Assembly (NCBI GenBank): GCA_965262725.1
Contig: OZ253555.1
Coordinates: 1,888,001 to 1,952,000, forward strand
DNA length: 64,000 bases
Source of the DNA: Dehalococcoidia bacterium
GTDB lineage: Bacteria; Chloroflexota; Dehalococcoidia; UBA2979
Reading direction: 5' to 3'
Shown piece after piece: positions 26,881 through 64,000 of the stretch. Positions within the stretch are counted from its first letter, which is position 1. Each line of letters opens with the position of its first letter. The translations under genes and the position numbers were made by a program. The notes under the pieces were generated by a model, which ran no database searches, was not told where the DNA came from, and saw only the letters and a list, made by a program, of their open reading frames with translations.

Positions 26881-28107
26881 TCAGGCGGCGAGCTCAGCGT
26901 CCTCGGTGCCCAGGCCGCCCCAGGCAGTCTCCTCGTCGTAGAGCCGGCGCTTGTGCAGGCAGCCGTGCAGGAACGCGACCAGGCGGTTGGCGAGGGCGCG
27001 CAGCGCCTGGTTGTGCCCGTCGCCGAGCGCCCGCCGCTGCTGGTAGTACGCCCGGCACCCGGGACTCGCCTGGAGCGAGCAGAACGCCCACATGTGTATC
27101 GCGTCGTAGAGGCGCCGGTTCCGCACGTGGCGCGCGGTGACCGCCCGCTTCCGCCCCGATGATATGGTGAGCGGCGACGTGCCCGCGTAGTTCCTGCGGG
27201 ACTTCGCGGACACGAAGCGTTCGGGGTCATCCCCGAACTCGCCCAGCACCCGGGCGCCGAGCACGGGCCCCAGGCCCGGCATCGACAGGTAAATCGCGGC
27301 GTCCGGGTGCTCCTCAAGAGACGCGGCCAGCTTCGACTCCAGTACCTCGAGTTGCCGGTTGATCTCCTGGAGCTGGGCAACCTGGGCGAGCACGCTGTCG
27401 GCGAACGCCTCGCTGAGCGCGGGCGCGACCGGGAGCGTGCGGAGCCGGAGTACCTCGCGTATCTCTTCCGCCCGCGTGTCCAGGTTGCGCTTGCGGCCTC
27501 CGCGCCTGAGCGCCGCGCGGAGCTGCGTCCGCGTCAGCTTCGCCGCCGCGAGCGGCTCCGGGGCGACGGCCAGCACCGAGAGCGCATCGGGATGCGTGAG
27601 GTCGGGGAAGGCCTGGAGTGCGGCCGGGAAGTACTGCAGCAGCGCGCTGCGCAGCCGGTTGCTCTCGCGGGTGCGATTCCAGACCAGCTGCTGCTGGGCG
27701 CGGGCGCGCACCTGCACGGCGGAGGCGAGGGCGCTGTCGCCCGCGACCGGCCGGTGGTTGTGGCTGTCGGTGCGGACGAGGTTCGCGAGCATGCGCGCAT
27801 CGCCCCGGTCCGACTTCCCGCCGCCGACCTGGTGTCGCTCGCGGTAGAGGGCCGCCACCCGCGGATTGATGGCGTAGACCCGGTAGCCCGCGCCGATGAG
27901 CGCTGCGACCCACGGGCCGCGGTCGGTCTCGATGCCGACCACGACCTGGCCGGCCTCCTGTGCATGCTCGGCGAGCAGCGCATGGAGCGCGGTCATGCCC
28001 TCCGCTCCCTCGGGGAGTCGCTTCGCCGCGAGGCTCTCGCCCTCCTCGTTCATGAGATGGACATCGTGATGGTCCTCGGCCCAGTCGTCCCCCACGTACA
28101 CCGTCAA
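26881..28107 (-). CDS. IS110 DEDD recombinase/transposase
   Basis: VYVGDDWAEDHHD, GIET, KSDRGDA, MPGLGPVLGARVLGEFGD, YAGTSPLTISSG. Confidence 0.95.
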   Translation of the reverse strand: MTVYVGDDWAEDHHDVHLMNEEGESLAAKRLPEGAEGMTALHALLAEHAQEAGQVVVGIETDRGPWVAALIGAGYRVYAINPRVAALYRERHQVGGGKSDRGDARMLANLVRTDSHNHRPVAGDSALASAVQVRARAQQQLVWNRTRESNRLRSALLQYFPAALQAFPDLTHPDALSVLAVAPEPLAAAKLTRTQLRAALRRGGRKRNLDTRAEEIREVLRLRTLPVAPALSEAFADSVLAQVAQLQEINRQLEVLESKLAASLEEHPDAAIYLSMPGLGPVLGARVLGEFGDDPERFVSAKSRRNYAGTSPLTISSGRKRAVTARHVRNRRLYDAIHMWAFCSLQASPGCRAYYQQRRALGDGHNQALRALANRLVAFLHGCLHKRRLYDEETAWGGLGTEDAELAA

Positions 28108-31909: not shown

Positions 31910-32494
31910 TTAGCAGAAGGGCATGTAGCCACTGCCAACCACAGACGAGGTCAACTGGTCTTCCAGGCTGCTTGGCGCGCACCCGCTCAACAAGTTTTCG
32001 CTGAGGTCCAGCACTTTTAGGTTGGAGAGGCTGCCCAGCTCCGCCGGTATCTCCCCGCTCAAGCTGTTCCAGCCGAGGTCCAACTCTACCAGGTTGGAGA
32101 GGCCGCCCAGCTCCGCCGGTATCTCCCCGCTCAAGTCGTTGCTCTTGAGGTCCAGCTCTGTCAGGCTAGAGAGGCTGCCCAGCTCCGGCGGTATCTCTCC
32201 GCTCAAGTCGTTGCTCTTGAGGTCCAGTATCTCCAGGTTGGAGAGGTTGCCCAGCTCCGCCGGTATCTCCCCGCTCAAGTCGTTGTCGCGGAGGTACAGT
32301 CCCTCCAGGTTGGAGAGGCTGCCCAGCTCCGGCGGTATCTCCCCGCTCAAGTCGTTGTCGCTGAGGCTCAGGCTCTTCAGGTTGGAGAGGCTGCCCAGCT
32401 CCGCCGGTATCTCCCCGCTCAAGTCGTTGTAGCTGAGGCTCAGGCTCTTCAGGTTGGAGAGGCTGCCCAGCTCCGCCGGTATCTCCCCGCTCAA
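31910..32494 (-). pseudogene. 3' part of a plant-type leucine-rich-repeat protein gene (7 x 24 aa), fused to an IS1380 remnant
   Basis: LSGEIP(A/P)ELGxLSNLxxLxLxxNx repeated 7 times (72-bp units), ending LSGCAPSSL...PFC. Confidence 0.88.
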
Positions 32495-33190
32495 AGCGGA
32501 CATCCAGCGCGCGGCAGGCGGCGACGACGGCGTGGGTGTAGAAGCCGCTGTCGGCGCGCATCGTGAGCTGCCCCGACGCCCTCGGCGGAGTCGCACCCGC
32601 GCCACCGTCTCACGCAGGAAGTGGGCGGCGCCGCGGCCGCTGTGCGCGCGGCCCTCGCGCAGCCGCGCCATCAGCACGTCGCCTGAGCCGGCCGCCACCA
32701 CGAGCAACGGGTGATAGCCGCGCGCGCCGCTGTAGCCGGGCTGGCGGGCGCCCTCCTTGGCGAGGCCGTAGGTCTCGCAGAGCGTCGAGTCGAGGTCGAT
32801 TGTGAGCGGCGCGTCGCCGGGTCCCGCTCCGGCCGCCCAGGCGCGGTCGAGCTGGCGGACGTGGCCCCAGCGGAAGCTGCGCAGGAAGGTCCCGAGGGTG
32901 GACGGCGCCTTCACGGTGCAGCCGAGCACGCGCCCGGCGCCGCCGGCGCGCAACGCATCGGCGTCGTCGATGCAGTCGCCGCCCGCGAGCGCCGAGGCGA
33001 CCAGGGTCAGCAGCTTGTCGCCGGCGTTCGCGCGCCCCGCCGCGTCACCGAGGTCGAGATGGCGCTCGGCGAGCTCGCGGAGGCCGAACCGGCCGGCGAG
33101 GGTGGCGGGGAGCAGCAGGCCCGCGTGGTCCACGAGGTGGTCGTCGTCGAAGGCGATGTCTATCCGGTCGGGGTCGCTCGTTGGTAGCAT
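32495..33190 (-). pseudogene. IS1380 transposase 5' half (frameshift ~32590, 3'-deleted)
   Basis: MLPTSDPDRIDIAFDDD..., LTIDLDSTLCETYG, GYHPLL; paralogue of 62403-63728. Confidence 0.9.
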
Positions 33191-33572
33191 CGAATGGGGT
33201 GCGCCAGGCTAACTGGTGCTTGGGCAGGAGGTGCAAGTCCTCTACGGCGAAGGAGCAAGCCACTCCACGCGGTTCCGCGAGCCGTGCGCGACTCGTCGCG
33301 AGGCGAGCCGTGAAGCGTCGGCAGCGGGGTAGGCGGGCGGAGCTATTGAGCATCGAAAGATGCATAATCCGGAGTGCCGAGGCTTTCCCATTGGTCGAAG
33401 GCAACACCGGCAACGGCGCTTCTGGCGAGCCGTCGTCGGGCTCTGCGGTGTCAAAGAACTCACGCACGTCTGCACGTCCAGCACCGGGACCTCATATGGA
33501 TGCCTCGGTTGTCAAGCCCCGTCCAGCGGTACTTGAACGTCCGGTCTGCTGCGGCGGCGGTCGCGCGAGGAT

Positions 33573-33819
33573 GACGACTCCGGGGTGGCGAAGGAGGGAT
33601 GAGCGGGAATTGTTCGACGTCTTGTCACTCTCATATTCGCGGGTTGCCAGTGGCAGAGCCGCATGACCCTTCTTCGTCAGGAGCAGGCGCATTCTGATAT
33701 CGCGGGTTGGCGACGCGAAGCGTCGTTGCCGCATGGTTCCGTCGCGCAGTCTCCGAAACGTAGTCCCGCTTATCCGTCCTTCACCGCCCCCGGAGTCGAG
33801 GTCCCCGCCCTCCGCGGCC
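33573..33819 (-). ncRNA. Bridge/seek-RNA-like module, distal copy
   Basis: 247 bp closed by a ~33-bp imperfect stem; donor-loop segments CTCATAT and GACCCT match the element's end junction AGGGTCTCATAT. Confidence 0.75.
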
Positions 33820-33950
33820 AGCTCCGCTGCATGCTCCTCACTCGCGGCGATGCCTGAGAGCCCCTGCTCCGTCGGGCGGATGTGCTCATCCGTCATCTCG
33901 ACCCTCTGCAGGTAGCTGCCGAAGGCCGCCTGGGCGCCCTTCTCCTGGAA

Positions 33951-34197
33951 GACGACTCCGGGGTGGCGAAGGAGGGATGAGCGGGAATCACTCGACGTTG
34001 TGTCACTCTTATAGTCGCGGGTTGCCAGTGGCAGAGCCGCATGACCTTTCTTCGTCGGGAGGGGGCGCCGTCTGGGAACGCGGGTTGGCGACGCTTCGCG
34101 TCGTTGCCGCATGGTCCCGTCGCGCGATCTCCAGAATGTGGTCCCGTTCATCCGTCCTTCACCGCCCCCGGAGTCGACGTCTCCGCCCTCCGCGGCC
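33951..34197 (-). ncRNA. Bridge/seek-RNA-like module, proximal copy
   Basis: 247-bp paralogue of 33573-33819; target-loop segments CTGGGA and GGTCCCG match the insertion site CGGGACCTGGGA. Confidence 0.75.
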
Positions 34198-34242
34198 GGT
34201 CTGTCCTCCTCTCCGTCCGCTCGCTGTTCGTGGCCAGCCGGC

Positions 34243-35355
34243 TCAGGCGGCCTGCTGCCGCTCTTCAGCGTGGGTGCGCAGCACCGCCCAGATGGCGGCG
34301 AGCAGCTCCCGCGCCACGGCCACGACGGCGACCTGCGACGGCTTGCCTCGCTCCTTGAGATGCCGGTAGCGCCGGGACATCCGGGAACCGGTCTTGTCGG
34401 CCATCGCGACCGCCCAGCCCGGCTGGCCCTGCCGCCGTCTGCGCAGCGGCGCCCCGACGCGGTACGGGCGGATGCTGTGCCAGCCCGCCTCGACCAGCAC
34501 GCGCCGGACGTGCTCGTTCCCCGTCTTGGTGATGCCGCCGCGCCGCGTCCTCGGGCCTGAGCTGTGCTCGCTCGCCACCAGCCCCACGTACGCTGCCAGC
34601 TGGTCGGGGCTTCCGAATCGCGTGATATCGCCGAGCTCGCCCAGGATCGTCATGGCGGTGACCGTGTCGATGCCGCGGAAGCAGCGGAGGAGTCCCGCCT
34701 CCGGCGCATACTCCTCACTCGCGACGATGTCTGAGAGCCTCTGCTCCATCAGGCGGATGTGTTCATCCGCCATCTCCACGCGCTGCAGGTAGCCGTCGAA
34801 TGCCGCCTGGTCGCCCAGCTCCTCGAAGGAGAGCGAGCGCAGCCAGCACCGGTGCTCTCGGGTCCACGTAGACTTACCATAATGGTGGCCCGAGCGCAGC
34901 AGGAACCCCGACAGTTGCACCTGGGCCGTCTTGCGGGCCGCAACGGCGTCCTCGCGCCCACGGGTGAGGTTGCGCACAGATTCCTGCCGCTCAGTCGGCT
35001 GGTGCACCTCGGTGAGCAGTCCCGCGCGCAAGAGATGCGCCAGGTTCCGCGCGTCGCGGCGGTCCGTCTTGACGCGGTCTCCCGGCTTTGTGGGGATCAG
35101 CGCCGGCGCGATGACGCGGCAGTCGATCCCCTTCGCATCGAGAGTGCGCTTCAGCCCGAACCCGGTCGGGCCCGCCTCGTAGCAACAGACCACGGAATCC
35201 CCGGCCTCGCGGCGCAGTCGCCGCGCCAGCGCCGCCACGGACGTCGGCTCGTTGGCGAGCTGCCACTCTTCGGGCTTCTTCTCCCCGTGCAGAACGGAGA
35301 CGTTGATCGTCCGCGCGTGCACGTCGAGGCCCACGTATAGCTTCGTCTGGTCCAT
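34243..35355 (-). CDS. IS110/IS1111 DEDD recombinase
   Basis: YVGLDVH, CYEAGPTG, VKTDRRDA, FRGIDTVTAM, YVGLVASEHSSG, GITKTGN. Confidence 0.95.
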   Translation of the reverse strand: MDQTKLYVGLDVHARTINVSVLHGEKKPEEWQLANEPTSVAALARRLRREAGDSVVCCYEAGPTGFGLKRTLDAKGIDCRVIAPALIPTKPGDRVKTDRRDARNLAHLLRAGLLTEVHQPTERQESVRNLTRGREDAVAARKTAQVQLSGFLLRSGHHYGKSTWTREHRCWLRSLSFEELGDQAAFDGYLQRVEMADEHIRLMEQRLSDIVASEEYAPEAGLLRCFRGIDTVTAMTILGELGDITRFGSPDQLAAYVGLVASEHSSGPRTRRGGITKTGNEHVRRVLVEAGWHSIRPYRVGAPLRRRRQGQPGWAVAMADKTGSRMSRRYRHLKERGKPSQVAVVAVARELLAAIWAVLRTHAEERQQAA

Positions 35356-35915
35356 CTGGTCTGCCCCCTACCCCTTCCATGTTCCGGTCCGGTTCCGCTC
35401 CGATGTTGCACTCGGAACAGAAACCGACACCGGTTCTCAAGGTGTCGAGGCATCCATAGGGTCTGGGAGGGCTCGGCCTTGTCCCTGCGTGTTGCCACGC
35501 CGGGACCGCAACGGAAAGGGCGATTCCGTAATCCGTTGACGCACGAGGTCGAGCAATCAGATCCGGCCATAGTAGTGATGAGGGCGGCGAACAAAGAGGA
35601 GTAGACACCCTCGGCGGAGTCGACGGAGCGAAGGGCCGGACCGGAGGGGAAGCTGGCGAAGCCCGGCACTGGCGGGACACTGCGCCCGCGTTTGGTGTCA
35701 CTCGGGCCACCCGGCTACGGCACCTCTTGGGTGCCGTCTGACCTGACGGAGGAGCCGTATGCGTTAACGCGCACGTACGGATCTGTCCGGGGGGCGGCCG
35801 GCAACGGCCGTCCCTACCGGAATTGCTCCCTGTGGCTGTGACGTGATTCGTTCAAAAACCATTGTCCCAGCTACAGCGGAGCACCCAACCGCAGACGCTC
35901 GCGCACTCTTCTTCG

Positions 35916-37833
35916 GTTCGCGGTAGGGATGCCGGTTGCCCGGCACCCCCCGCACAGATCCGGACGTGCCCTCTCGGGCATCCGGCTCCTACCTCAAGTG
36001 CGTGACGGCAAATCGCTCCGCAGGCCACGGGTGAAGGATGGAGATTCGGGGCCAGTGTTTCTGGCACAGGGCAAGGATGCGCTCCCACGTGAAACGGTCG
36101 CGCTGCGACCGCCGTCGGAGAACGCGCAGCCAGAGCCGCTTCACGAAACGAACAAACCGCGTGAGCGCCGGCGAGCTGGTCGGCACCGCGTAGTAGCCAA
36201 GCCACCCACGCAGTACCCGCCCCAGCCACTGCCCCGTCGTCACGGGGTTGTCGTGCATGCGCCGCCACAACTCGGCCTTGATGACCTTCAGCGTCCGGCG
36301 CATCCGCTTCGCAACGGGCTTGCGCCCCAGCCCGAATCTCCCGTCGCGTCGGGTCCGGCAGTAGTGCGTCATGCCGAGAAAGTCGAACGTTTCCGGTCGG
36401 CCCTCCCCGCGCTTCCGCCTGTTCGCCAGCGCGAACCTGCCGAACTCAAGTAGACGGGTCTTCTCCGGGTGCAGCTCCAGCCCGTAGGCCGCGAACCGCT
36501 CCCGGAGTGCCTCCATGAACCGCACCGCATCGCTGCGGTGCTGGAAACCCAGGACGAAGTCATCGGCATACCGCACGATGTACGCCTCGCCCCGGACCTC
36601 CCGCGGTCGCCACTCGCGCGCAAACCAGTCGTCGAGCACGTTGTGCAGGTACACGTTCGCAAGCAGCGGCGATATCGGCGCCCCCTGCGGCATCCCCCGC
36701 ACGAAATCGACTTCCGGCTCCGCGTCCATGACGCCGACGCTCAGCCACTTTCGTATCAGGCGCAACACCCGCTGGTCCCCGATGCGCATCTCCAGAAACG
36801 ACATCAGCCGCCCCCGGTCGATGCTGCCGAAGAACTCCCGGATGTCCACCTCGACAATCCAGCTGACCTTGCGCCGTTCGACCGCGTAGGCCAGTGCGTC
36901 CAGCGCGTCATGCGCCGAACGCCCCGGCCTGAAGCCATGCGAGAAGCCGTAGTAGCCCGACTCGTAAATCGGGTTCAAAAGATTGTCCACCACCGCCCGC
37001 TGAACGATCTTGTCCTCCAGCGAGACGATACCGAGCGGCCGTATTCCCCCGTCCGGCTTGGGTATCTCTACCCGCCTGACGGGCTTCGCCCGGTACGCTC
37101 CACGGTGTACGCGGCCATGCAGGTCGAGCAATCGCTCGTCCAGCCCGTCCCCGTATTCTCGCCACCTCACCCCGTCCACGCCCGGAGCCGCATCCCGCTT
37201 CAACGCGAGATACGCCTCCCGCAGCGCCTCCGGCGTGATGTGGTGCAAGAGCGCGGTGAGTTTCTCTCCCGGCTTCCGTTCCACGAACTGCCGTATCCTC
37301 TCCGCTCCGGGTGACACCGCACCCCGACTCTGCGTCCGGACCGTGCCGGTGCTTTGAGGATTCCTCTCGGTTGGGGCCCTTTGCTCCAGCGACTCCGCCG
37401 GGGCTCGCGCCCCCTTGTTCGCCGCCTTCATCGCTCGTACGGCCCCATCAGACTGCTGCGCATCGTTCATCATCGGCTACGGTTTACGTCCCTTCCCGAC
37501 GCGGTCCCGGCGTACGACTCGTCGGGACAACGCGCAGCTCTCCCAAGTCCCGGCGATAGACGTGTGTGCGTGCATGGGGTCTTCGACACCGTGGGGCCCG
37601 ACCACGACTCGCCAGTAGCGCCGTCGCCGGTATTGCCTTCGACCAATCCAAGAGCCTCGGCACCCCAAATGGCCCTTTCGATGCTCATTAGCCCCGCCCG
37701 CACACCCCGCTGCCGACGCTTCACAAGCCGCCTCGCGACGACCCGCGCACGGCTCGCGGAATGACATGAGTGGCTAGCTCTTTGCCATAGAGGACTTCCA
37801 CCTCCTGCCTACTCGCCAGTTAGCCTGGCGCTC
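35916..37833 (-). mobile_element. Complete group II intron A (1918 nt, bacterial class E-like) encoding an RT/maturase
   Basis: 5' end GAGCGCCAGG; domain V GAGCCGGATGCC...GGCACGTCCGGATC directly after the stop codon; domain VI ending CCCTACCGCGAAC; EBS1 TGGATT vs IBS1 GATCCA. Confidence 0.92.
35989..37473 (-). CDS. ltrA: Group II intron reverse transcriptase/maturase (no endonuclease domain)
   Basis: APGVDG, IPKPDGGIRPLGI, GFRPGRSAHDAL, GMPQGAPISPLLANVYL, YADD, FDFLG, X domain GWLGYYAVP. Confidence 0.95.
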   Translation of the reverse strand: MMNDAQQSDGAVRAMKAANKGARAPAESLEQRAPTERNPQSTGTVRTQSRGAVSPGAERIRQFVERKPGEKLTALLHHITPEALREAYLALKRDAAPGVDGVRWREYGDGLDERLLDLHGRVHRGAYRAKPVRRVEIPKPDGGIRPLGIVSLEDKIVQRAVVDNLLNPIYESGYYGFSHGFRPGRSAHDALDALAYAVERRKVSWIVEVDIREFFGSIDRGRLMSFLEMRIGDQRVLRLIRKWLSVGVMDAEPEVDFVRGMPQGAPISPLLANVYLHNVLDDWFAREWRPREVRGEAYIVRYADDFVLGFQHRSDAVRFMEALRERFAAYGLELHPEKTRLLEFGRFALANRRKRGEGRPETFDFLGMTHYCRTRRDGRFGLGRKPVAKRMRRTLKVIKAELWRRMHDNPVTTGQWLGRVLRGWLGYYAVPTSSPALTRFVRFVKRLWLRVLRRRSQRDRFTWERILALCQKHWPRISILHPWPAERFAVTHLR

Positions 37834-37844
37834 TGGATCAGGGC

Positions 37845-40800
37845 TTATTGACCTTCTCCGCTACTGCCGGGTGTCCCCTCGCCGGCACGCTCCCCGAGAG
37901 GCGGCTCGTGCTTGGCGATCAGTGGCGTAAGCGGGCGCACGCCGTCGGTGAACAGCTCGCGGAAGGGCGCATTGACGAAGGGCGGCGCCCCGAGGATGTA
38001 GGGGGTGAACTCGCTGTCGTGCAACGTGTAGAGAGCCGACACATGCTGGCTCTGCATACACGCCGCGAGTTCCCCGACGCTCCCCCCTTCATAGACGACG
38101 AGGTTGAAGCCCTCCACCATGGCGCCGTGCAAGCAGCCTGGCCAGGTCTCCGGTTCGCTGCCCGTCGGCGAGTGGATCTCGCCGGGTACGAGTCTCCCCT
38201 CTTGAGATTCGTTGCTTACGGCGACGAGTGGCGTGAGTGGGGCAAGGGCCTCGGCAAACAGCTCGCGGAACGGCTGATTCACAAACCTCGGCGCTCCCAG
38301 GATGTACGGAACGTATGCCCCATCGGCCAGGGCGTAGAGGGCCACGACCCCTCGGCTGAGCGCGCAAGCCTCCAGTTCTTCCACACTGCCGCCTGCATAG
38401 AGGACGAAGCTGAATCCGACGGCCAGTTCCCCAGACAGACAGACCGGCCGGACGCGGTAGACGGTCCTGCGGCTCCCGTCCGCCGAGATTACCGTGACTG
38501 TGATCTCGCCCTCTGGCTCGACTGCAACCTGGTGCCCATTCGCCGGGTCGGCGTCGCGGTCAGCTGGCTCTATGACGACCGTCGCGTCTTGCCGTCGAGC
38601 CTCCGCTTCGACCGTCGTCACGGTGAGGCCCGGCGTGATGAGCCCCCAGTAGTCAGTCGTGCCACGGAAGAATGCGTCGATCGACATACCGCTCAGCGAG
38701 AGTGAGGCGAGGCAGGTGTCGATGGATTTCGGCATGTCGTACCTGTAATGGCGCTCGTCCTGTGCGTCTGCGACGTACATCACGCCACAGTCCGACCAGA
38801 TGCCACGCGGGTCGCTGTTGCCCGCCCCCCGGAGCTGCGCGAAGTCCCTATCGCGGACGCGCACAAGCGCGCTCGCAGCGGGGCTACCCTGTGGGAAGGT
38901 GAGCGAGCCGGAGGCGGGGCGGTAGTCGGTCCCGGCGCGGGCGCTGCCATTGGCGGTGGTGTAGCCGACCGTGAGGTCGGCGCTGGGGATGACGCCGGTT
39001 GGTGACAGGGAGACGGGATAGGTCGCCGTAGCGCCCTCGTCCACCGAGGCGTCGCCCTCGAGGACAACGGTGATCGGATCAGAGGGCGCGATGGTGGCCG
39101 AGGCCTCGCCATTGTGCTCGTCGACGGTGACGCCGGTAGGGAGGTTGCCGCCTGCGGGGCCGAGGCTGACGGTGAGGGACTCGGCCAGCTCGGAGAGGTT
39201 GTCGTCTGCTAGGGCGAGCGTGATGGTCCGGGTGGCGCCGGCGACGGAGCCGACGGCGAAGGTCACCGGCATGGTGTTGACGACGCTGTCAGCGGACAGC
39301 ATGAACGAGCCGCTGGTGGGCCAGTAGTCGCGGCCCGCAACCGCATCTCCCGACACCGACCAGGCGACGCTCACCGCCGCCGCCACCTCAGCCGAGAGGG
39401 TGACGGTGAAGGTGACGTCGGAGCCCTCCTCGAGGTCACCTGCGGGAGCGCTGATCGCGAGCGTGGCGCGGTCGTCGTCCTCGAGGGTGATGGTGGCCTC
39501 AGTGACTGTGAGGCGGCCGCTGTGGACACCCTGCACGAGGATCGTCTCGTCACCCTCGACCACACTGTCGTCGCTGGGCGTGAGCAGGAAGCTGGTCGTG
39601 GCCGAGGGCCGGCCGGCGGCGATGGTGATGGCACCGAGGGGGGTCGCCGTGTAGTCGGCGCCGGAGCTGGCGCTGCCGCCCAGGCTGAGCCTGAGCGTGG
39701 TGTCCGTCGGCAGGGTGGCGCCTCCATGCATGGTCGCGGTCACGGTGAGGGTAGTGGCGGCGGAGCCCTCGGCGATACTGCGCTCGGAGACCGACAGGGC
39801 GATACCGCTGCGGGGTGCGTCGTCGTCGTTGATGGTGGTGGTCAACGGCGAACCGCTGACTGTCAGGGGCTCGCCCCCGCCGCCGGATGCGTCGCGGAGC
39901 TCGAGCGTGAAGGTCTCGCCGCGCTCGGCGGCGCCGTCCTCGATGGTGCTCACCTGTACGGTCTGCGCACTGCCGCCGCTCGCGGTGAAGGTGAGCGAGC
40001 CGGAGGCGGGGCGGTAGTCGGTCCCGGCGCGGGCGCTGCCATTGGCGGTGGTGTAGCCGACCGTGAGGTCGGCGCTGGGGATGACGCCGGTTGGTGACAG
40101 GGAGACGGGATAGGTCGCCGTAGCGCCCTCGTCCACCGAGGCGTCGCCCTCGAGGACAACGGTGATCGGATCAGAGGGCGCGATGGTGGCCGAGGCCTCG
40201 CCATTGTGCTCGTCGACGGTGACGCCGGTAGGGAGGTTGCCGCCTGCGGGGCCGAGGCTGACGGTGAGGGACTCGGCCAGCTCGGAGAGGTTGTCGTCTG
40301 CTAGGGCGAGCGTGATGGTCCGGGTGGCGCCGGCGACGGAGCCGACGGCGAAGGTCACCGGCATGGTGTTGACGACGCTGTCAGCGGACAGCATGAACGA
40401 GCCGCTGGTGGGCCAGTAGTCGCGGCCCGCAACCGCATCTCCCGACACCGACCAGGCGACGCTCACCGCCGCCGCCACCTCAGCCGAGAGGGTGACGGTG
40501 AAGGTGACGTCGGAGCCCTCCTCGAGGTCACCTGCGGGAGCGCTGATCGCGAGCGTGGCGCGGTCGTCGTCCTCGAGGGTGATGGTGGCCTCAGTGACTG
40601 TGAGGCGGCCGCTGTGGACACCCTGCACGAGGATCGTCTCGTCACCCTCGACCACACTGTCGTCGCTGGGCGTGAGCAGGAAGCTGGTCGTGGCCGAGGG
40701 CCGGCCGGCGGCGACGGTGATGGCACCGAGGGGGGTCGCCGTGTAGTCGGCGCCGGAGCTGGCGCTGCCGCCCAGGCTGAGCCTGAGCGTGGTGTCCGTC

Positions 40801-60300: not shown

Positions 60301-60441
60301 TGGGAATGACAACTCCGTATGGCCCCTTACCTTCTTCAAATGAGCTCAGTAACCTCTGAGCCCGGGAAGCCCAGCGCGGCCGCCAGCCATCCCGCGAGTC
60401 CGGTAGCCTCTTGGGCCAGGGCACGCATCGCGGTAACCTAA

Positions 60442-61769
60442 GGGCACTTCGAAGAATGACTATATCGTCGGCATGGTGAATGATATACTGTAGCCATCAG
60501 TGTCATGGTTACGGGGGATGATATGGGCCAACTTGGATTCTTCAATGTGGACGACCGCTACGACGCTCTCGACGCCAAGGGCGACCCACTCGCCAAGCTC
60601 GACCAAATCATCCCGTGGGAGCAGTTCAGACCTCAGTTAGAAGCCGTCTGGGCCACGCCCGAAGAAGAGCGTAAATCACCGGCCGGACGCAAGCCATGGG
60701 ACGCAATCGTCATCTTCAAGGGATTGATACTCGGCGTACTCTACAACCTCTCCGATGAACAGATTGAGTATCAGATCCGCGACCGTCTCTCCTTCTCCCG
60801 CTTCTGCGGCACAGGCATCGAAGGCCGGGTGCCCGACGCCACCACCTTCTGGCTCTACCGCGAGCAGTTGACCAGGGCGGGCGCCATCGCCGAGTTGTTC
60901 CAGGCCTTCGACCACTATCTCGCCAGCCAGGGCTACCGCGCCAGTGGCGGACAGATCGTCGACGCCTCGATCGTCTCGGTGCCGATCCAGCGCAACAGCC
61001 GCCGGGAGAACGAGTCGCTCAAGCAGGACCTCATTCCCTCGGAGTGGGTCTTCAATCCGGCGAAGCTGGCCCAGAAAGACCTCGACGCCCGCTGGACGAA
61101 GAAGCACGGGAAGAGTCACTACGGCTACAAGAACCACATCACCATCGATCGGCGCCACAAGCTGGTGCGTTCCTACGCCGTCACCGATGCCGCGGTCCAT
61201 GACAGCCAGGTGATCGACCAGCTGCTCGACTCTCCGAACACGTCACCCGATGTGTGGGCAGACCGTGCCTATCGGTCGCGGGCGATTGAGGCAATGCTCA
61301 CGGAGAAAGGTCTGACGAGCCGCATCCATCGGAAGGCCGCTGCCAACCGGCCGTTGACGGCGGCTGAGGAGGCGGTCAACCGGGGATGGTCGCAAGTACG
61401 GGCCCGGGTTGAGCACATCTTCGGCTCGCAGACGAACGAGATGGGCGGCACGCACATCCGTACGATCGGCGTGCGGCGGGCAGTGACGCAGATCGGCTTC
61501 AAGAACCTGGCGTACAATATTCGCCGTCTGGCGCACCTCGAACACCGCCGTACGGCTGCCGCGGCCTAGCTTGCCGCCACCCGTCCACAGACCTCACACC
61601 AGCCTCTAGTTCGGTGCTTTGACAGTCCCGTTTAACTGTCAATTATCCCGCTTCACCTATGCTCTCGCGGACTCACCCACACCCCCTGGGGTCTCCTCAG
61701 CTACGCCCTCTGCCCCCTCGTGCCCTCACCGATACCTTCATCAAAAATCGCGAGTTCTTCGAGGTGCCC
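60442..61769 (+). mobile_element. Complete IS5-family (IS5 subgroup) element, CTAA target duplication
   Basis: IRs GGGCACTTCGAAGAA / TTCTTCGAGGTGCCC; CTAA at 60438-41 and 61770-73. Confidence 0.92.
60505..61569 (+). CDS. IS5-family transposase
   Basis: YNLSDEQIEYQIRDRLSF, VPDATT, IVDASIV, DARWTKK, GYKNH, WADRAY, RARVEHIFG. Confidence 0.94.
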   Translation: MVTGDDMGQLGFFNVDDRYDALDAKGDPLAKLDQIIPWEQFRPQLEAVWATPEEERKSPAGRKPWDAIVIFKGLILGVLYNLSDEQIEYQIRDRLSFSRFCGTGIEGRVPDATTFWLYREQLTRAGAIAELFQAFDHYLASQGYRASGGQIVDASIVSVPIQRNSRRENESLKQDLIPSEWVFNPAKLAQKDLDARWTKKHGKSHYGYKNHITIDRRHKLVRSYAVTDAAVHDSQVIDQLLDSPNTSPDVWADRAYRSRAIEAMLTEKGLTSRIHRKAAANRPLTAAEEAVNRGWSQVRARVEHIFGSQTNEMGGTHIRTIGVRRAVTQIGFKNLAYNIRRLAHLEHRRTAAAA

Positions 61770-61793
61770 CTAACGTGCCTTAGCCCTGATCCA

Positions 61794-62180
61794 GAGCGCC
61801 AGGCTAACTGGCGAGTAGGCAGGAGGTGGAAGTCCTCTATGGCAAAGAGCTAGCCACTCATGTCATTCCGCGAGCCGTGCGCGGGTCGTCGCGAGGCGGC
61901 TTGTGAAGCGTCGGCAGCGGGGTGTGCGGGCGGGGCTAATGAGCATCGAAAGGGCCATTTGGGGTGCCGAGGCTCTTGGATTGGTCGAAGGCAATACCGG
62001 CGACGGCGCTACTGGCGAGTCGTGGTCGGGCCCCACGGTGTCGAAGACCCCATGCACGCACACACGTCTATCGCCGGGACTTGGGAGAGCTGCGCGTTGT
62101 CCCGACGAGTCGTACGCCGGGACCGCGTCGGGAAGGGACGTAAACCGTAGCCGATGATGCACGATGCGCAGCAGTCTGAT
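61794..62180 (+). mobile_element. 5' fragment of a second copy of group II intron A, preceded by the IS1380 left tip
   Basis: Near-identical reverse complement of ~37447-37833 with the same 5' exon GCCCTGATCCA; truncated by the right end of the next IS1380. Confidence 0.92.
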
Positions 62181-62402
62181 CTCGAATCCACCGATCGAAG
62201 CTTGACGAGGCGGGGTGCCGGGCTGCCGGAGAGTTCGGCGGGCGTGCCGGCGTTCGCCGGGCGGCGCCGGGGGCGGGCCGGAGCCAGGAGCCGTCGCTGA
62301 GCGCAGCTCGGGGGCGCTGAGGGTGCGGGCGCGAGGGTGCGCGAGGCGTGCGCGGGCATGCTGGCGCGAGCCTCGGACCCGGGTCGGCGCTGTGAGCGGG
62401 CG

Positions 62403-63728
62403 TCAGGCCGGGAGCGGTATCGCCCGTAGTCGCGCGAGCGCGGCTGCCAGCTGCTCTGCCCAGGGCCAGCGCTTCGGGAGGTGCAGAGTCCACCGCCGGG
62501 CAGAGCGGGTGAGCCGTCCGGCGAGAGAGAAGTAGCGTCGCCTGAGCGTCCTGGTCGTCACGATCCCCTCGCCGAGCCCGAGGCGTGCCGTCCAGCGGGC
62601 GAGGTTGTGCGCGATCACCTGCACCGCGAGCCACGCCGCGTTCGCGGCGAAGCGGCCCGAGGGGAGATGGTTCAACCCGACGCCGTACTTGAGGTCGCGG
62701 ATCGCGTTCTCGATCTCGGCGTGACGGCGATGGTCGGCCTCCAGCTCCATCATCTCCCCCGCGCGATCGGTGATGAAGGCATGGTAACTGTAGTTCACGA
62801 AGAGTGCGAGCTGTGAGCCGGGCGTCGGCTTGACGCGCCGCACGATGAGCCGCACCGCGGTGGCGTCCCTCGTGTGCTGGAACGGCGTGTAGGTCGTCTC
62901 GGCGACAGCGGCGCCGTCGTCCTGCCAGTACGGGATCGGCGTCCAGTCCTCTTCCGGTATCGCCTCGATCAGCCGGCGTACGTTCGGCTGCTGGCGAATG
63001 GTGATGGAAAAGCGGACATCCTGCTTGCGACAGACGGCGACGACAGCGTGGTTGTAGAAGCCGCTGTCGGCGCGCACCGTGAGCTGCCCGCTCGCCCCGG
63101 CGTCGCGCACCCGCGCCACCGTCTCACGGAGAAAGTGTGCGGCCCCCCGAGCGGTGTTGGCACGGCCCCCGCGCAGCCGGGCCATCAGCACCTCACCCGT
63201 CCCGGCCGCCACCGCGAGCAGCGGGTGATAGCCGCGCACGCCCGTGTAGCCGTGGTGCCGGGCGCCCTCCTTCGCCAGGCCGTAGGTCTCGCAGAGCGTC
63301 GAGTCGAGGTCGATGGTGAACGGCGCCGCGCCGGGTCCCGCCCCGGCCGCCCAACTGCGGGCCAGCAACTCGCGGCTGACGCGGTCGAGCTGACGGACGT
63401 GGCCCCAGCGAAAGCTGCGCAGGAAGGTCCCGAGGGTGGACGGCGCCTTCACGGTGCAGCCGAGCACGCGCCCGGTGCCGCCTGAGCGCATGGCATCGGC
63501 GTCATCGATGCAGTCGCCGCCCGCGAGCGCCGAGGCGATGAGAGTCATCAGCTTGTCGCCGACGTTCGCCCGCCCCGCTGCGTCACCGAGGTCGAGGTGG
63601 GCGTCTGCCAGTTCACGGAGGCCGAGCCGGCCAGCGAGCGTGGCCGGGAGCAGCAGGCCCGCGTGGTCCACGAGGCGGTCGTCGTCGAAGGCGATGTGTA
63701 TCCGGTCGGGGCTGCTCGTTGCTAGCAT
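62403..63728 (-). CDS. IS1380-family transposase (intact ORF)
   Basis: FTIDLDST, GYHPLL, VRADSGFY, HRRHAEIENAIRDLK, PSGRFAANAAW; right end ATCTCGAATCCACCGATCGAAG at ~62179. Confidence 0.94.
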   Translation of the reverse strand: MLATSSPDRIHIAFDDDRLVDHAGLLLPATLAGRLGLRELADAHLDLGDAAGRANVGDKLMTLIASALAGGDCIDDADAMRSGGTGRVLGCTVKAPSTLGTFLRSFRWGHVRQLDRVSRELLARSWAAGAGPGAAPFTIDLDSTLCETYGLAKEGARHHGYTGVRGYHPLLAVAAGTGEVLMARLRGGRANTARGAAHFLRETVARVRDAGASGQLTVRADSGFYNHAVVAVCRKQDVRFSITIRQQPNVRRLIEAIPEEDWTPIPYWQDDGAAVAETTYTPFQHTRDATAVRLIVRRVKPTPGSQLALFVNYSYHAFITDRAGEMMELEADHRRHAEIENAIRDLKYGVGLNHLPSGRFAANAAWLAVQVIAHNLARWTARLGLGEGIVTTRTLRRRYFSLAGRLTRSARRWTLHLPKRWPWAEQLAAALARLRAIPLPA

Positions 63729-63736
63729 CGAATGGG

Positions 63737-64000
63737 GTGCGCCAGGCTAACTGGTGCTTGGGCAGGAGGTGCAAGTCCTCTACGGCGAAGGAGCAAGCCA
63801 CTCCACGCGGTTCCGCGAGCCGTGCGCGACTCGTCGCGAGGCGAGCCGTGAAGCGTCGGCAGCGGGGTAGGCGGGCGGAGCTATTGAGCATCGAAAGATG
63901 CATAATCCGGAGTGCCGAGGCTTTCCCATTGGTCGAAGGCAACACCGGCGACGGCGCTTCTGGCGAGCCGTCGTCGGGCTCTGCGGTGTCAAAGAACTCA
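63737..64000 (+). ncRNA. 5' part of a second copy of group II intron B (runs off the window)
   Basis: Near-identical to 33199-33462, inserted at the same site CATCGAATGGG|GTGCG, 8 bp upstream of the IS1380 ATG. Confidence 0.9.

Follow-up and report, generated by a model that had tools for sequence, protein, structure and literature searches.

The stretch examined here is a 64,000-nt window from the genome of a Dehalococcoidia bacterium (assembly GCA_965262725.1, contig OZ253555.1:1,888,001–1,952,000, forward strand), in which the left end of an IS1380-family insertion sequence (IS) carries two group II introns, A and B, inserted in opposite orientations. All coordinates are positions in this window unless they are called genome positions; the source genome is a single contig of 3.67 Mb with 70.6% G+C. 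Taken together, the evidence makes it very probable that two site-specific sibling introns home into the ends of this IS and that IS110-family elements invade the introns in their turn, so that mobile elements lie nested within one another. A sequence-only reading of the same DNA had already recognized two sibling introns of opposite orientation in an IS1380 left end, and this stands: both are supported by Rfam and reverse transcriptase (RT) matches, and eight uninterrupted copies of the left end define the intron borders. Exon-binding sites (EBS) and intron-binding sites (IBS) are named as EBS1/IBS1 and EBS2/IBS2, and D1 to D6 are the intron domains. From the outer flank inward, the locus consists of:

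37844–37848 (−): flank ATAAG at the position of the target duplication; the final G supplies the remaining base of IBS2 for intron A; no right end is present at this locus
37834–37843 (−): outer 10 nt of the left inverted repeat, CCCTGATCCA; 5′ exon of intron A (IBS1 and most of IBS2)
35917–37833 (−): intron A, 1,917 nt, GAGCG...GCGAA, on the same strand as the transposase; Rfam match, borders from uninterrupted copies
37645–37650, 37672–37676 and 35917–35990 (−): EBS1, EBS2 and D5-D6 of intron A
35989–37473 (−): RT/maturase of intron A, 494 residues, YADD; TIGR04416 at 325.6 bits (cut-off 300), RVT_1 the only Pfam domain
35824–35916 (−): 93-nt middle of the IS left end, between both introns; ends in GGGAGCA, a likely ribosome-binding site (RBS)
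33199–35823 (+): intron B, 2,625 nt, GTGCG...GGAAT, antisense to the transposase, between RBS and ATG, without RT
33387–33392 and 33359–33363 (+): EBS1 and EBS2 of intron B
33491–35462 (−): IS110-family element ‘IS110-alpha’ in intron B, 1,972 bp; NF033542, empty site in sibling introns
33187–33198 (+): 5′ exon of intron B, with IBS2 GCATC (33187–33191), a linker G and IBS1 AATGGG (33193–33198)
32493–33198 (−): truncated, diverged IS1380-family body, comprising 8 nt and approximately the first 700 nt of the transposase gene

The intact IS measures 1,659 bp and encodes a transposase of 441 residues (open reading frame (ORF) 62403–63728, −), which matches NF033539 at 340.2 bits (cut-off 180) and Pfam DDE_Tnp_1_4. 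Members of the IS1380 family are ~1.65 kb long and generate target duplications of 4–5 bp. Copies were counted by BLAST of pieces of the locus against the whole source genome, which returned 14 near-full main-family copies at ~97% identity, three copies of an 82%-identical variant, and 15 left ends of the main family. Eight of the 15 are uninterrupted and read (flank)CCCTGATCCA/CCGAAGAAGAG...CACAGGGAGCA/CCCATTCGATG, the slashes marking the sites of introns A and B; before the transposase start these copies read ...CACAGGGAGCA-CCCATTCG-ATG. Target duplications of 5 bp are matched at all eight (CCAAG, ATAAG, CTAAG, CTACG, CTAAT, TGTAT, CTTAT and CTTAA). The IS begins with CCCTGATCCACC... on the left and ends with ...GGTGGATTCGAG on the right; read inward, the right repeat is CTCGAATCCACC, and the two terminal repeats are imperfect, sharing 8 of their first 11 bases. 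The 93-nt middle of the left end is found in 15 genome copies at 91–100% identity.

Set against these copies, intron A interrupts the left repeat after base 10, and intron B lies between GGGAGCA and CCCATTCGATG, on the strand opposite to that of the transposase. The left end that the sequence-only reading had rebuilt by excising both introns agrees with the uninterrupted copies except for one base, as the 3′ exon of A starts with CCGAAG, not CGAAG. The IS tip outside A, which it had measured at 11 bp, is 10 nt long; the eleventh base (G) already belongs to the flank, where it closes the 5-bp target duplication. The borders of B are also given by contigs of a public run, X6, in which 33198 is joined directly to 35824 (2625 nt skipped, GT..AT). 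Contigs of the public runs used here (X1, X2, X5 and X6) end at repeat borders, and their depths, which reflect mixed organisms, were not used as copy numbers. The transposase ATG, read on the complementary strand, overlaps the IBS2 of B (33187–33191). The IS body at the locus is 85.6% identical to the copy at 62181–63736 across its first 729 nt; it ends at ~32493 and runs on in frame into 24-residue leucine-rich repeats, a truncation that leaves this IS copy dead irrespective of the introns.

The structural models identify both insertions. RF02005 (group-II-D1D4-6, gathering score 49) matches intron A at 37577–37798 (−, 170 bits) and intron B at 33234–33460 (+, 163 bits), as well as 61829–62050 (+) and 63772–63998 (+), with all four matches at 163–170 bits; introns A and B are covered over the full length of the model. 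At permissive thresholds, RF00029 (gathering score 40) places D5-D6 at 35916–35990 (−, 39.9 bits) and at 35750–35823 (+, 39.3 bits), 0.1–0.7 bits short of the gathering score. The consensus fold of D5-D6 from seven relatives has 28 pairs, seven of them with changes on both sides (compensatory), and D5 and D6 of intron B differ from those of A through paired changes. The 494-residue ORF with its YADD is intact in seven of seven uninterrupted A copies, and its relatives in protein databases number in the thousands, at 63–99% identity, under uninformative names and with a usual length of 493–499 residues. Intron B, which has no RT, is 653 nt long once its IS110 insert is removed, an ORF-less architecture that it shares with a chimeric intron at another IS tip (663 nt, inserts removed). 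The earlier description of B as ORF-less is thus right as to the RT, but the intron does hold a 1,972-bp IS110-family element with a 370-residue transposase.

Intron B has the canonical ends GUGCG...AU, whereas intron A has GAGCG...GAA in place of GUGYG...AY. The start GAGCG and the end ...GCGAA are common to intron A and two sibling lineages. Such ends appear to be tolerated, given the many near-identical copies of A (at least 12), and A was filed as a group II intron because it has the structural and protein features of one and its copies are evidently recent. Introns A and B are confirmed as group II introns, presumably able to splice and move. No endonuclease domain was detected in the intron A RT by Pfam, which matched RVT_1 only. 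Inspection of the same protein did not find the C-terminal motif that PMC4615759 quotes for class D (the group of RmInt1 and RmInt2), LX3AX3PXLF[V/A]HW; the C-terminus reads ...HWPRISILHPW.... Among solved structures, the RT matches PDB entry 7uim at 158 bits and GsI-IIC at 147 (class IIC-type), LtrA at 104 and the maturase-RT chain of 6me0 at 93; an assignment to class IIC was not drawn from these scores, several classes being without a solved RT.

In the Rfam D1 alignment, A and B differ to a large extent only in the EBS1 loop and the EBS2 internal loop. The terminal (EBS1) loop is CUUGGAUUG in A and UUCCCAUUG in B, and the internal (EBS2) loop is AAAGGGCCAUU in A and AAAGAUGCAUAAU in B. The EBS1 and EBS2 pairs that the sequence-only reading had named lie within these two loops and pair as it claimed: UGGAUU with (G)ATCCA and AGGGC with GCCCT in intron A; CCCAUU with AATGGG and GAUGC with GCATC in intron B. 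Both introns have the same exon layout, IBS2 followed by one linker G and IBS1. Two further intron lineages in the genome show partial EBS matches to their own exons. At seven of seven occupied left tips the flank supplies the G needed to complete GCCCT, as it does at four of eight free tips, and B is found in three of six IS copies with GCATC and in none of nine with ACATC. One-sided hypergeometric probabilities, calculated by hand, are ~0.05 for the flank G and ~0.04 for GCATC, values that are confounded because the IS copies are related to one another. At the right repeat, four of the five EBS2 pairs can form, one of them a wobble.

Genome-wide, all 14 A-type 5′ junctions follow a decamer ending in ATCCA. 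The decamer is CCCTGATCCA (left-repeat type) in nine cases, CTCGAATCCA (right-repeat type) in three, and the variants CCCGAATCCA and CCCGGATCCA in the others; the preceding base is G in 13 of the 14. Three of these sites are right repeats of main-family copies, and some are ends of the 82%-identical variant family; the intron has entered unrelated IS copies independently. Its orientation is inward from the tip throughout, which puts it antisense to the transposase at right ends. A census of left ends, proposed in the earlier reading, finds an A-type intron in 7 of the 15 main-family tips (six with A, one with a chimeric ORF-less intron that has an A-type 5′ part), B in 3 and neither in 8. The three left ends with B all hold a tip intron as well, and their left repeat is split. 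Right ends are occupied in 3 of the 16 seen. Complete-length copies of A number 12, and 11 of their 1,917 columns are variable. Further copies lie near the end of the window:

61784–62180 (+): solo IS tip (61784–61793) followed by 387 nt from the 5′ end of a copy of intron A, interrupted there by the right end of the following IS
62181–63736 (−): IS1380-family copy, right tip up to the insertion site of B; genome BLAST and family match
63737–64000 (+): 5′ portion of another copy of intron B, again between RBS and ATG, running past the window end

The claim that each junction at the locus recurs in another IS copy accordingly holds for 63729–37, which belongs to the second copy of B at the same site, but the junction at 61783–94 belongs to the solo tip with its 387 nt of intron A and not to an intact left end. 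The chimeric tip intron (genome 1954579–1958887, −) is found in the IS copy that starts at 62181. Its first 287 nt are 98% identical to intron A, EBS loops included, the remainder belongs to a B-like ORF-less lineage, and the switch point lies right at an IS110 insertion.

The distribution of intron A points to a spread by repeated recent retrohoming into resident IS ends, as judged from the copies themselves, rather than to travel as a composite with the IS. On a maximum-likelihood tree of 17 IS bodies, the seven intron-bearing copies are scattered: intron presence takes six changes, the shuffled mean is 5.7, and 394 of 500 shuffles are equally low. One IS body with intron A (c2471) is identical to one with no intron (c2384), and another pair of this kind (c1878 with A, c2029 with none) differs at three positions, while IS bodies differ from each other by up to 65 of ~1,557 positions. 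The comparison of the IS tree with the uniformity of the intron, run as a test of co-transposition, therefore favours independent homing. If the IS1380 transposase moved IS and intron together as units in trans, the junctions would recur as well, and the earlier reading had offered such a composite as one of two outcomes. Duplications of 5 bp do enclose the whole unit in four of six checkable copies, such as one of 10.2 kb (L021, genome 2018986–2029232), and the B insertion alone leaves both inverted repeats intact. The matching duplications are, however, equally expected where the intron arrived after the IS; those proposed as a check thus agree in four copies and disagree in two, and the agreement fits either order. 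Composite travel is highly improbable, since the occupied copies form no clade, matching or nearly matching IS bodies include both occupied and empty copies, intron A varies far less than its hosts and is also found in right repeats, in the variant family and at solo tips, and the left repeat is split in every copy that bears B. For the other outcome, in which the introns would domesticate IS1380, no evidence of a benefit to the host or the IS was found.

A further alternative to homing is spread at the DNA level, that is, mainly by homologous recombination or gene conversion among IS copies in place of reverse splicing. The same observations that count against homing favour this alternative. 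The locus is a mosaic, with a 93-nt piece 100% identical to two main-family copies and a transposase side that is only 71–94% identical; duplications are mismatched in two of the six intron-bearing IS copies; chimeric introns (A/D and A/ORF-less) exist; and three of three genome copies of B carry the same IS110 complex, a 2-kb insert inside the ribozyme that sits awkwardly with movement of B. To these points against homing are added the non-canonical ends of intron A and a sigma-70-like scan of one intact left end, which gave 0 sites, a scan that may not suit this organism, and which leaves the promoter suspected in the earlier reading unconfirmed. Introns without an endonuclease are expected to show a bias relative to the replication strand; the GC skew is flat here and the terminus unplaceable, so that the 14 A-type orientations carry no strand-bias score.

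DNA-level spread is nonetheless improbable. The A sites in right repeats and in the 82%-identical variant have only ~10–12 nt in common with the left-repeat site; from one locus to another, the sequences 5′ of B diverge from base −14 on; and the EBS loops covary with the exons. A 106-nt 5′ fragment of B, 100% identical, is present in an unrelated repeat family (genome 1458203–1458309) at GCATGAAGTGGG/T, that is, at a look-alike IBS and exactly before the same +1 T. The repeat has nine other copies with an empty site and also occurs at 497–1006 of the window. A look-alike IBS site in foreign DNA speaks for reverse splicing rather than for recombination between IS copies. Together with the paired changes in D5 and D6 and the shared ORF-less architecture, it marks intron B as a living lineage, not a mere relic. 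The 106-nt fragment is cut off by yet another repeat.

That the recurring junctions are assembly artefacts, or the product of one segmental duplication, is scarcely tenable. The assembly is a single contig from a repeat-rich organism, and the short public-run contigs break at repeat borders; yet the outer flanks differ among the 14 A-type junctions, most duplications match the far end of their own IS, the copies bear different secondary insertions, the 5′ junction of B is spanned by a contig from an independent study (X5), and an A-type junction occurs in another genome. The uninterrupted copies do carry the left end that the sequence-only reading had rebuilt, bar the one base, and the differing flanks argue against duplication or misassembly, the two outcomes that would have counted against it.

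From these features we infer a retrohoming chemistry, a mobilization of B in trans and a consequence for the IS. Intron A, with its endonuclease-less RT, recognizes the outer 10–11 nt of IS ends through EBS1/EBS2–IBS1/IBS2 pairing. It has entered left repeats many times, and right repeats more rarely, each time after base 10, with retrohoming by reverse splicing as the likely route. Intron B belongs to an ORF-less sister lineage of ~650 nt, which has kept D5 and D6 by compensatory changes and whose EBS loops changed to fit GCATC-G-AATGGG, a target that spans the transposase start codon on the antisense strand. Its spread most likely took place with RT supplied in trans by an A-type intron. An IS110-family element, presumably RNA-guided, has landed at one fixed position in B. 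Both insertions plausibly cripple the IS copy that they enter, as A splits the repeat after base 10 and B separates GGGAG from the ATG. Each should thus inactivate its end or the transposase gene, which would make the introns parasites, not partners, of the IS. If the insertions do inactivate IS ends, the introns erode the IS population, in which 7 of the 15 left tips are already split.

The introns are themselves hosts. IS110-alpha encodes a transposase of 370 residues (34243–35355, −; NF033542 at 234 bits), has subterminal inverted repeats (A/C)TATGGATGCCTCG, and its 3′ part is partially duplicated internally. Sibling introns are unbroken at this position and read CACCGGGACC/TGGGAGGGCT, between which B has the 1,972 bp. 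A form of B free of IS110 and at the same IS site is seen in contigs of runs X1, X2, X5 and X6, where 33490 is joined to 35463; one X5 contig starts with 31 nt of 5′ exon and covers both B-like halves, with 8 letters and one gap differing in the first 282–322 nt. Elements of the IS110-alpha type have four copies in the genome, all at the same position in ORF-less introns. The site is ~30 nt past the end of the Rfam D1 model. A fold of D1–D4 computed with RNAalifold from six sequences was not trusted to assign it to any particular domain. Intron A position 418–420 is occupied by a second IS110-family element (1.55 kb; NF033542 at 216.6 bits). Four of its five genome copies are in introns, namely three A copies of three haplotypes and the chimeric intron, and the fifth copy is broken. 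Its presence in different intron A haplotypes makes independent site-specific hits the simplest reading. The copies in introns and those of an IS5-family element are:

337678–339228, 3305830–3307383, 3505958–3507511 and 1954818–1956368 (genome positions): second IS110-family element in introns (loci including L019 and L020)
60441–61770 (+, window), 1876116–1877443 and 1522773–1524100 (genome positions): IS5-family element

The IS5-family element (NF033581, 271 bits) is found twice at intron A position 882–887, in opposite orientations. At the third B-bearing locus (L021, 2654–6468), genes of the IS21 family (a transposase and an IstB helper) and an IS256-family gene lie within the IS110 region and constitute a fifth nesting level.

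Two IS110-family elements almost confined to these introns are the newest detail of the case. Their transposases are of the IS110 family, like those of elements guided by a bridge RNA (PMC11208160), and each is found at one fixed sequence, as an RNA-guided choice predicts; a difference is that they land within group II intron DNA. For the bridge RNA itself, there was no Rfam match in 33100–37900 at E≤1, and no dedicated search was made. A literature search combining IS110 with target site returned, by title and abstract, nothing on introns as IS110 targets. A longer chain can be envisaged, in which a host gene is invaded by IS1380, IS1380 by group II introns and the introns by IS110, with the introns as a near-exclusive IS110 landing pad and B ferrying IS110 as reverse-spliced RNA. 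This four-tier chain is rather doubtful. Part of it agrees with the location of all four copies of the first IS110 type in ORF-less introns and of four of five copies of the second type in introns, and with B holding one and the same complex IS110 insert in three IS copies, the bodies of which are 85–98% identical; independent IS110 hits or DNA recombination could also account for the pattern. If true, a DNA transposon would gain a way of spreading through RNA. Intron-specific IS110 elements are also a possible source of natural pairs of bridge RNA and target.

The RmInt1 site lies inside a transposase gene in sense orientation, so that its removal by splicing can yield an intact mRNA; here, with A in a repeat and B antisense, no such repair of the IS is possible. 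The homing site of RmInt1 is inside the multicopy ISRm2011-2, as mentioned in PMC4615759. The closest parallel is RmInt2 of Sinorhizobium meliloti GR4, every copy of which lies within the inverted repeats of ISRm17, at two sites per IS on opposite replication strands, with four EBS2 pairs sufficing (PMC4615759). As described there, the two cases share an endonuclease-less intron that targets the inverted repeats of a multicopy IS and tolerates one EBS2/IBS2 mismatch, near-identical copies that suggest recent spread, and a related intron with another IS target in the same genome. The present case differs in its IS1380 host, the bacterial class, the lack of the class D C-terminal motif and the intron ends GAGCG...GAA, and in that a second, ORF-less sibling is directed to the opposite strand of this IS left end. 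According to the same article, related intron-encoded proteins (IEPs) can cross-complement for splicing and sometimes for mobility (PMC4615759).

In Thermosynechococcus elongatus, ORF-less introns with diverged EBS retrohome, driven by the IEPs of other introns (PMC2882425). Intron B is like them in lacking an ORF, in its diverged EBS, in new and conserved sites with good EBS/IBS pairing, and in belonging to introns nested in mobile DNA. It is unlike them in that the favoured targets there are other introns and intergenic sites, and in that mobilization in trans is experimental there and is deduced here. A full-text literature search for group II introns together with IS1380 returned, by title and abstract, nothing on this association. 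The case extends RmInt2/ISRm17 to another IS family and bacterial class and joins it with the theme of ORF-less siblings; the concepts are unchanged. It provides a natural example of how an intron family diversifies through few EBS base changes, with both new sites in one dispensable multicopy IS, and its census of occupied and free tips, left and right repeats and IBS2 flank bases allows tests of target rules in a poorly studied bacterial class.

Among 41 genomes, the source genome included, nine have a match at E≤0.001, and genuine intron A matches outside the source genome are confined to two, G003 and G008, where the full intron copies occupy other, conserved targets. A scan of genome contigs for A-type junctions gave one match, in G008, a genome of the same family labelled as a Dehalococcoidia metagenome-assembled genome, where the junction reads ttag-CCCGAATCCA/GAGCG. 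Exact scans of JGI metagenome contigs returned 0 matches to the B junction and 0 to the A junction. The G008 intron (L025, 989–2815) combines an A-type 5′ part at an IS-like tip, CCCGAATCCA, with a D-type 3′ part and 3′ exon and is a recombinant between intron copies (an A/D chimera). In the source genome, a sibling intron (genome 733700–734422, L024) is 85% identical to A, starts with GTGCG and abuts a repeat of ~865 bp. This repeat has more than 25 genome copies and ORFs without a family match, and the homologous target is conserved in G008.

Further coding sequence adjoins the locus on both sides. On the inner side lies:

31910–32492 (−): leucine-rich-repeat coding fragment in 72-nt tandem units, outside the IS

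These units are plant-like (LSGEIPAELGSLSNL...) and continue the reading frame of the truncated IS1380 transposase, of which the first ~200 residues are left. On the outer side, an ORF of 7,300 residues (37845–59747, −) has an internal period of ~1,092 nt, as judged by shadow-ORF spacing, and its TAA stop falls within the five bases that flank the IS tip, so that the insertion may have removed the end of this ORF or only just spared it. The leucine-rich-repeat fragment and the giant ORF share a single short match of 45 nt at 85%. Over the whole genome, the cumulative GC skew rises from ~0.4 Mb, is flat between ~1.85 and 2.6 Mb and falls after ~2.6 Mb. The flat stretch holds many of the IS and intron copies, and its shape suggests heavy rearrangement near the terminus. 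Elsewhere in the window, 27202–27283 (+) gives a borderline Rfam match to the actinobacterial sRNA Ms_AS-4, at 51.7 bits against a gathering score of 50.

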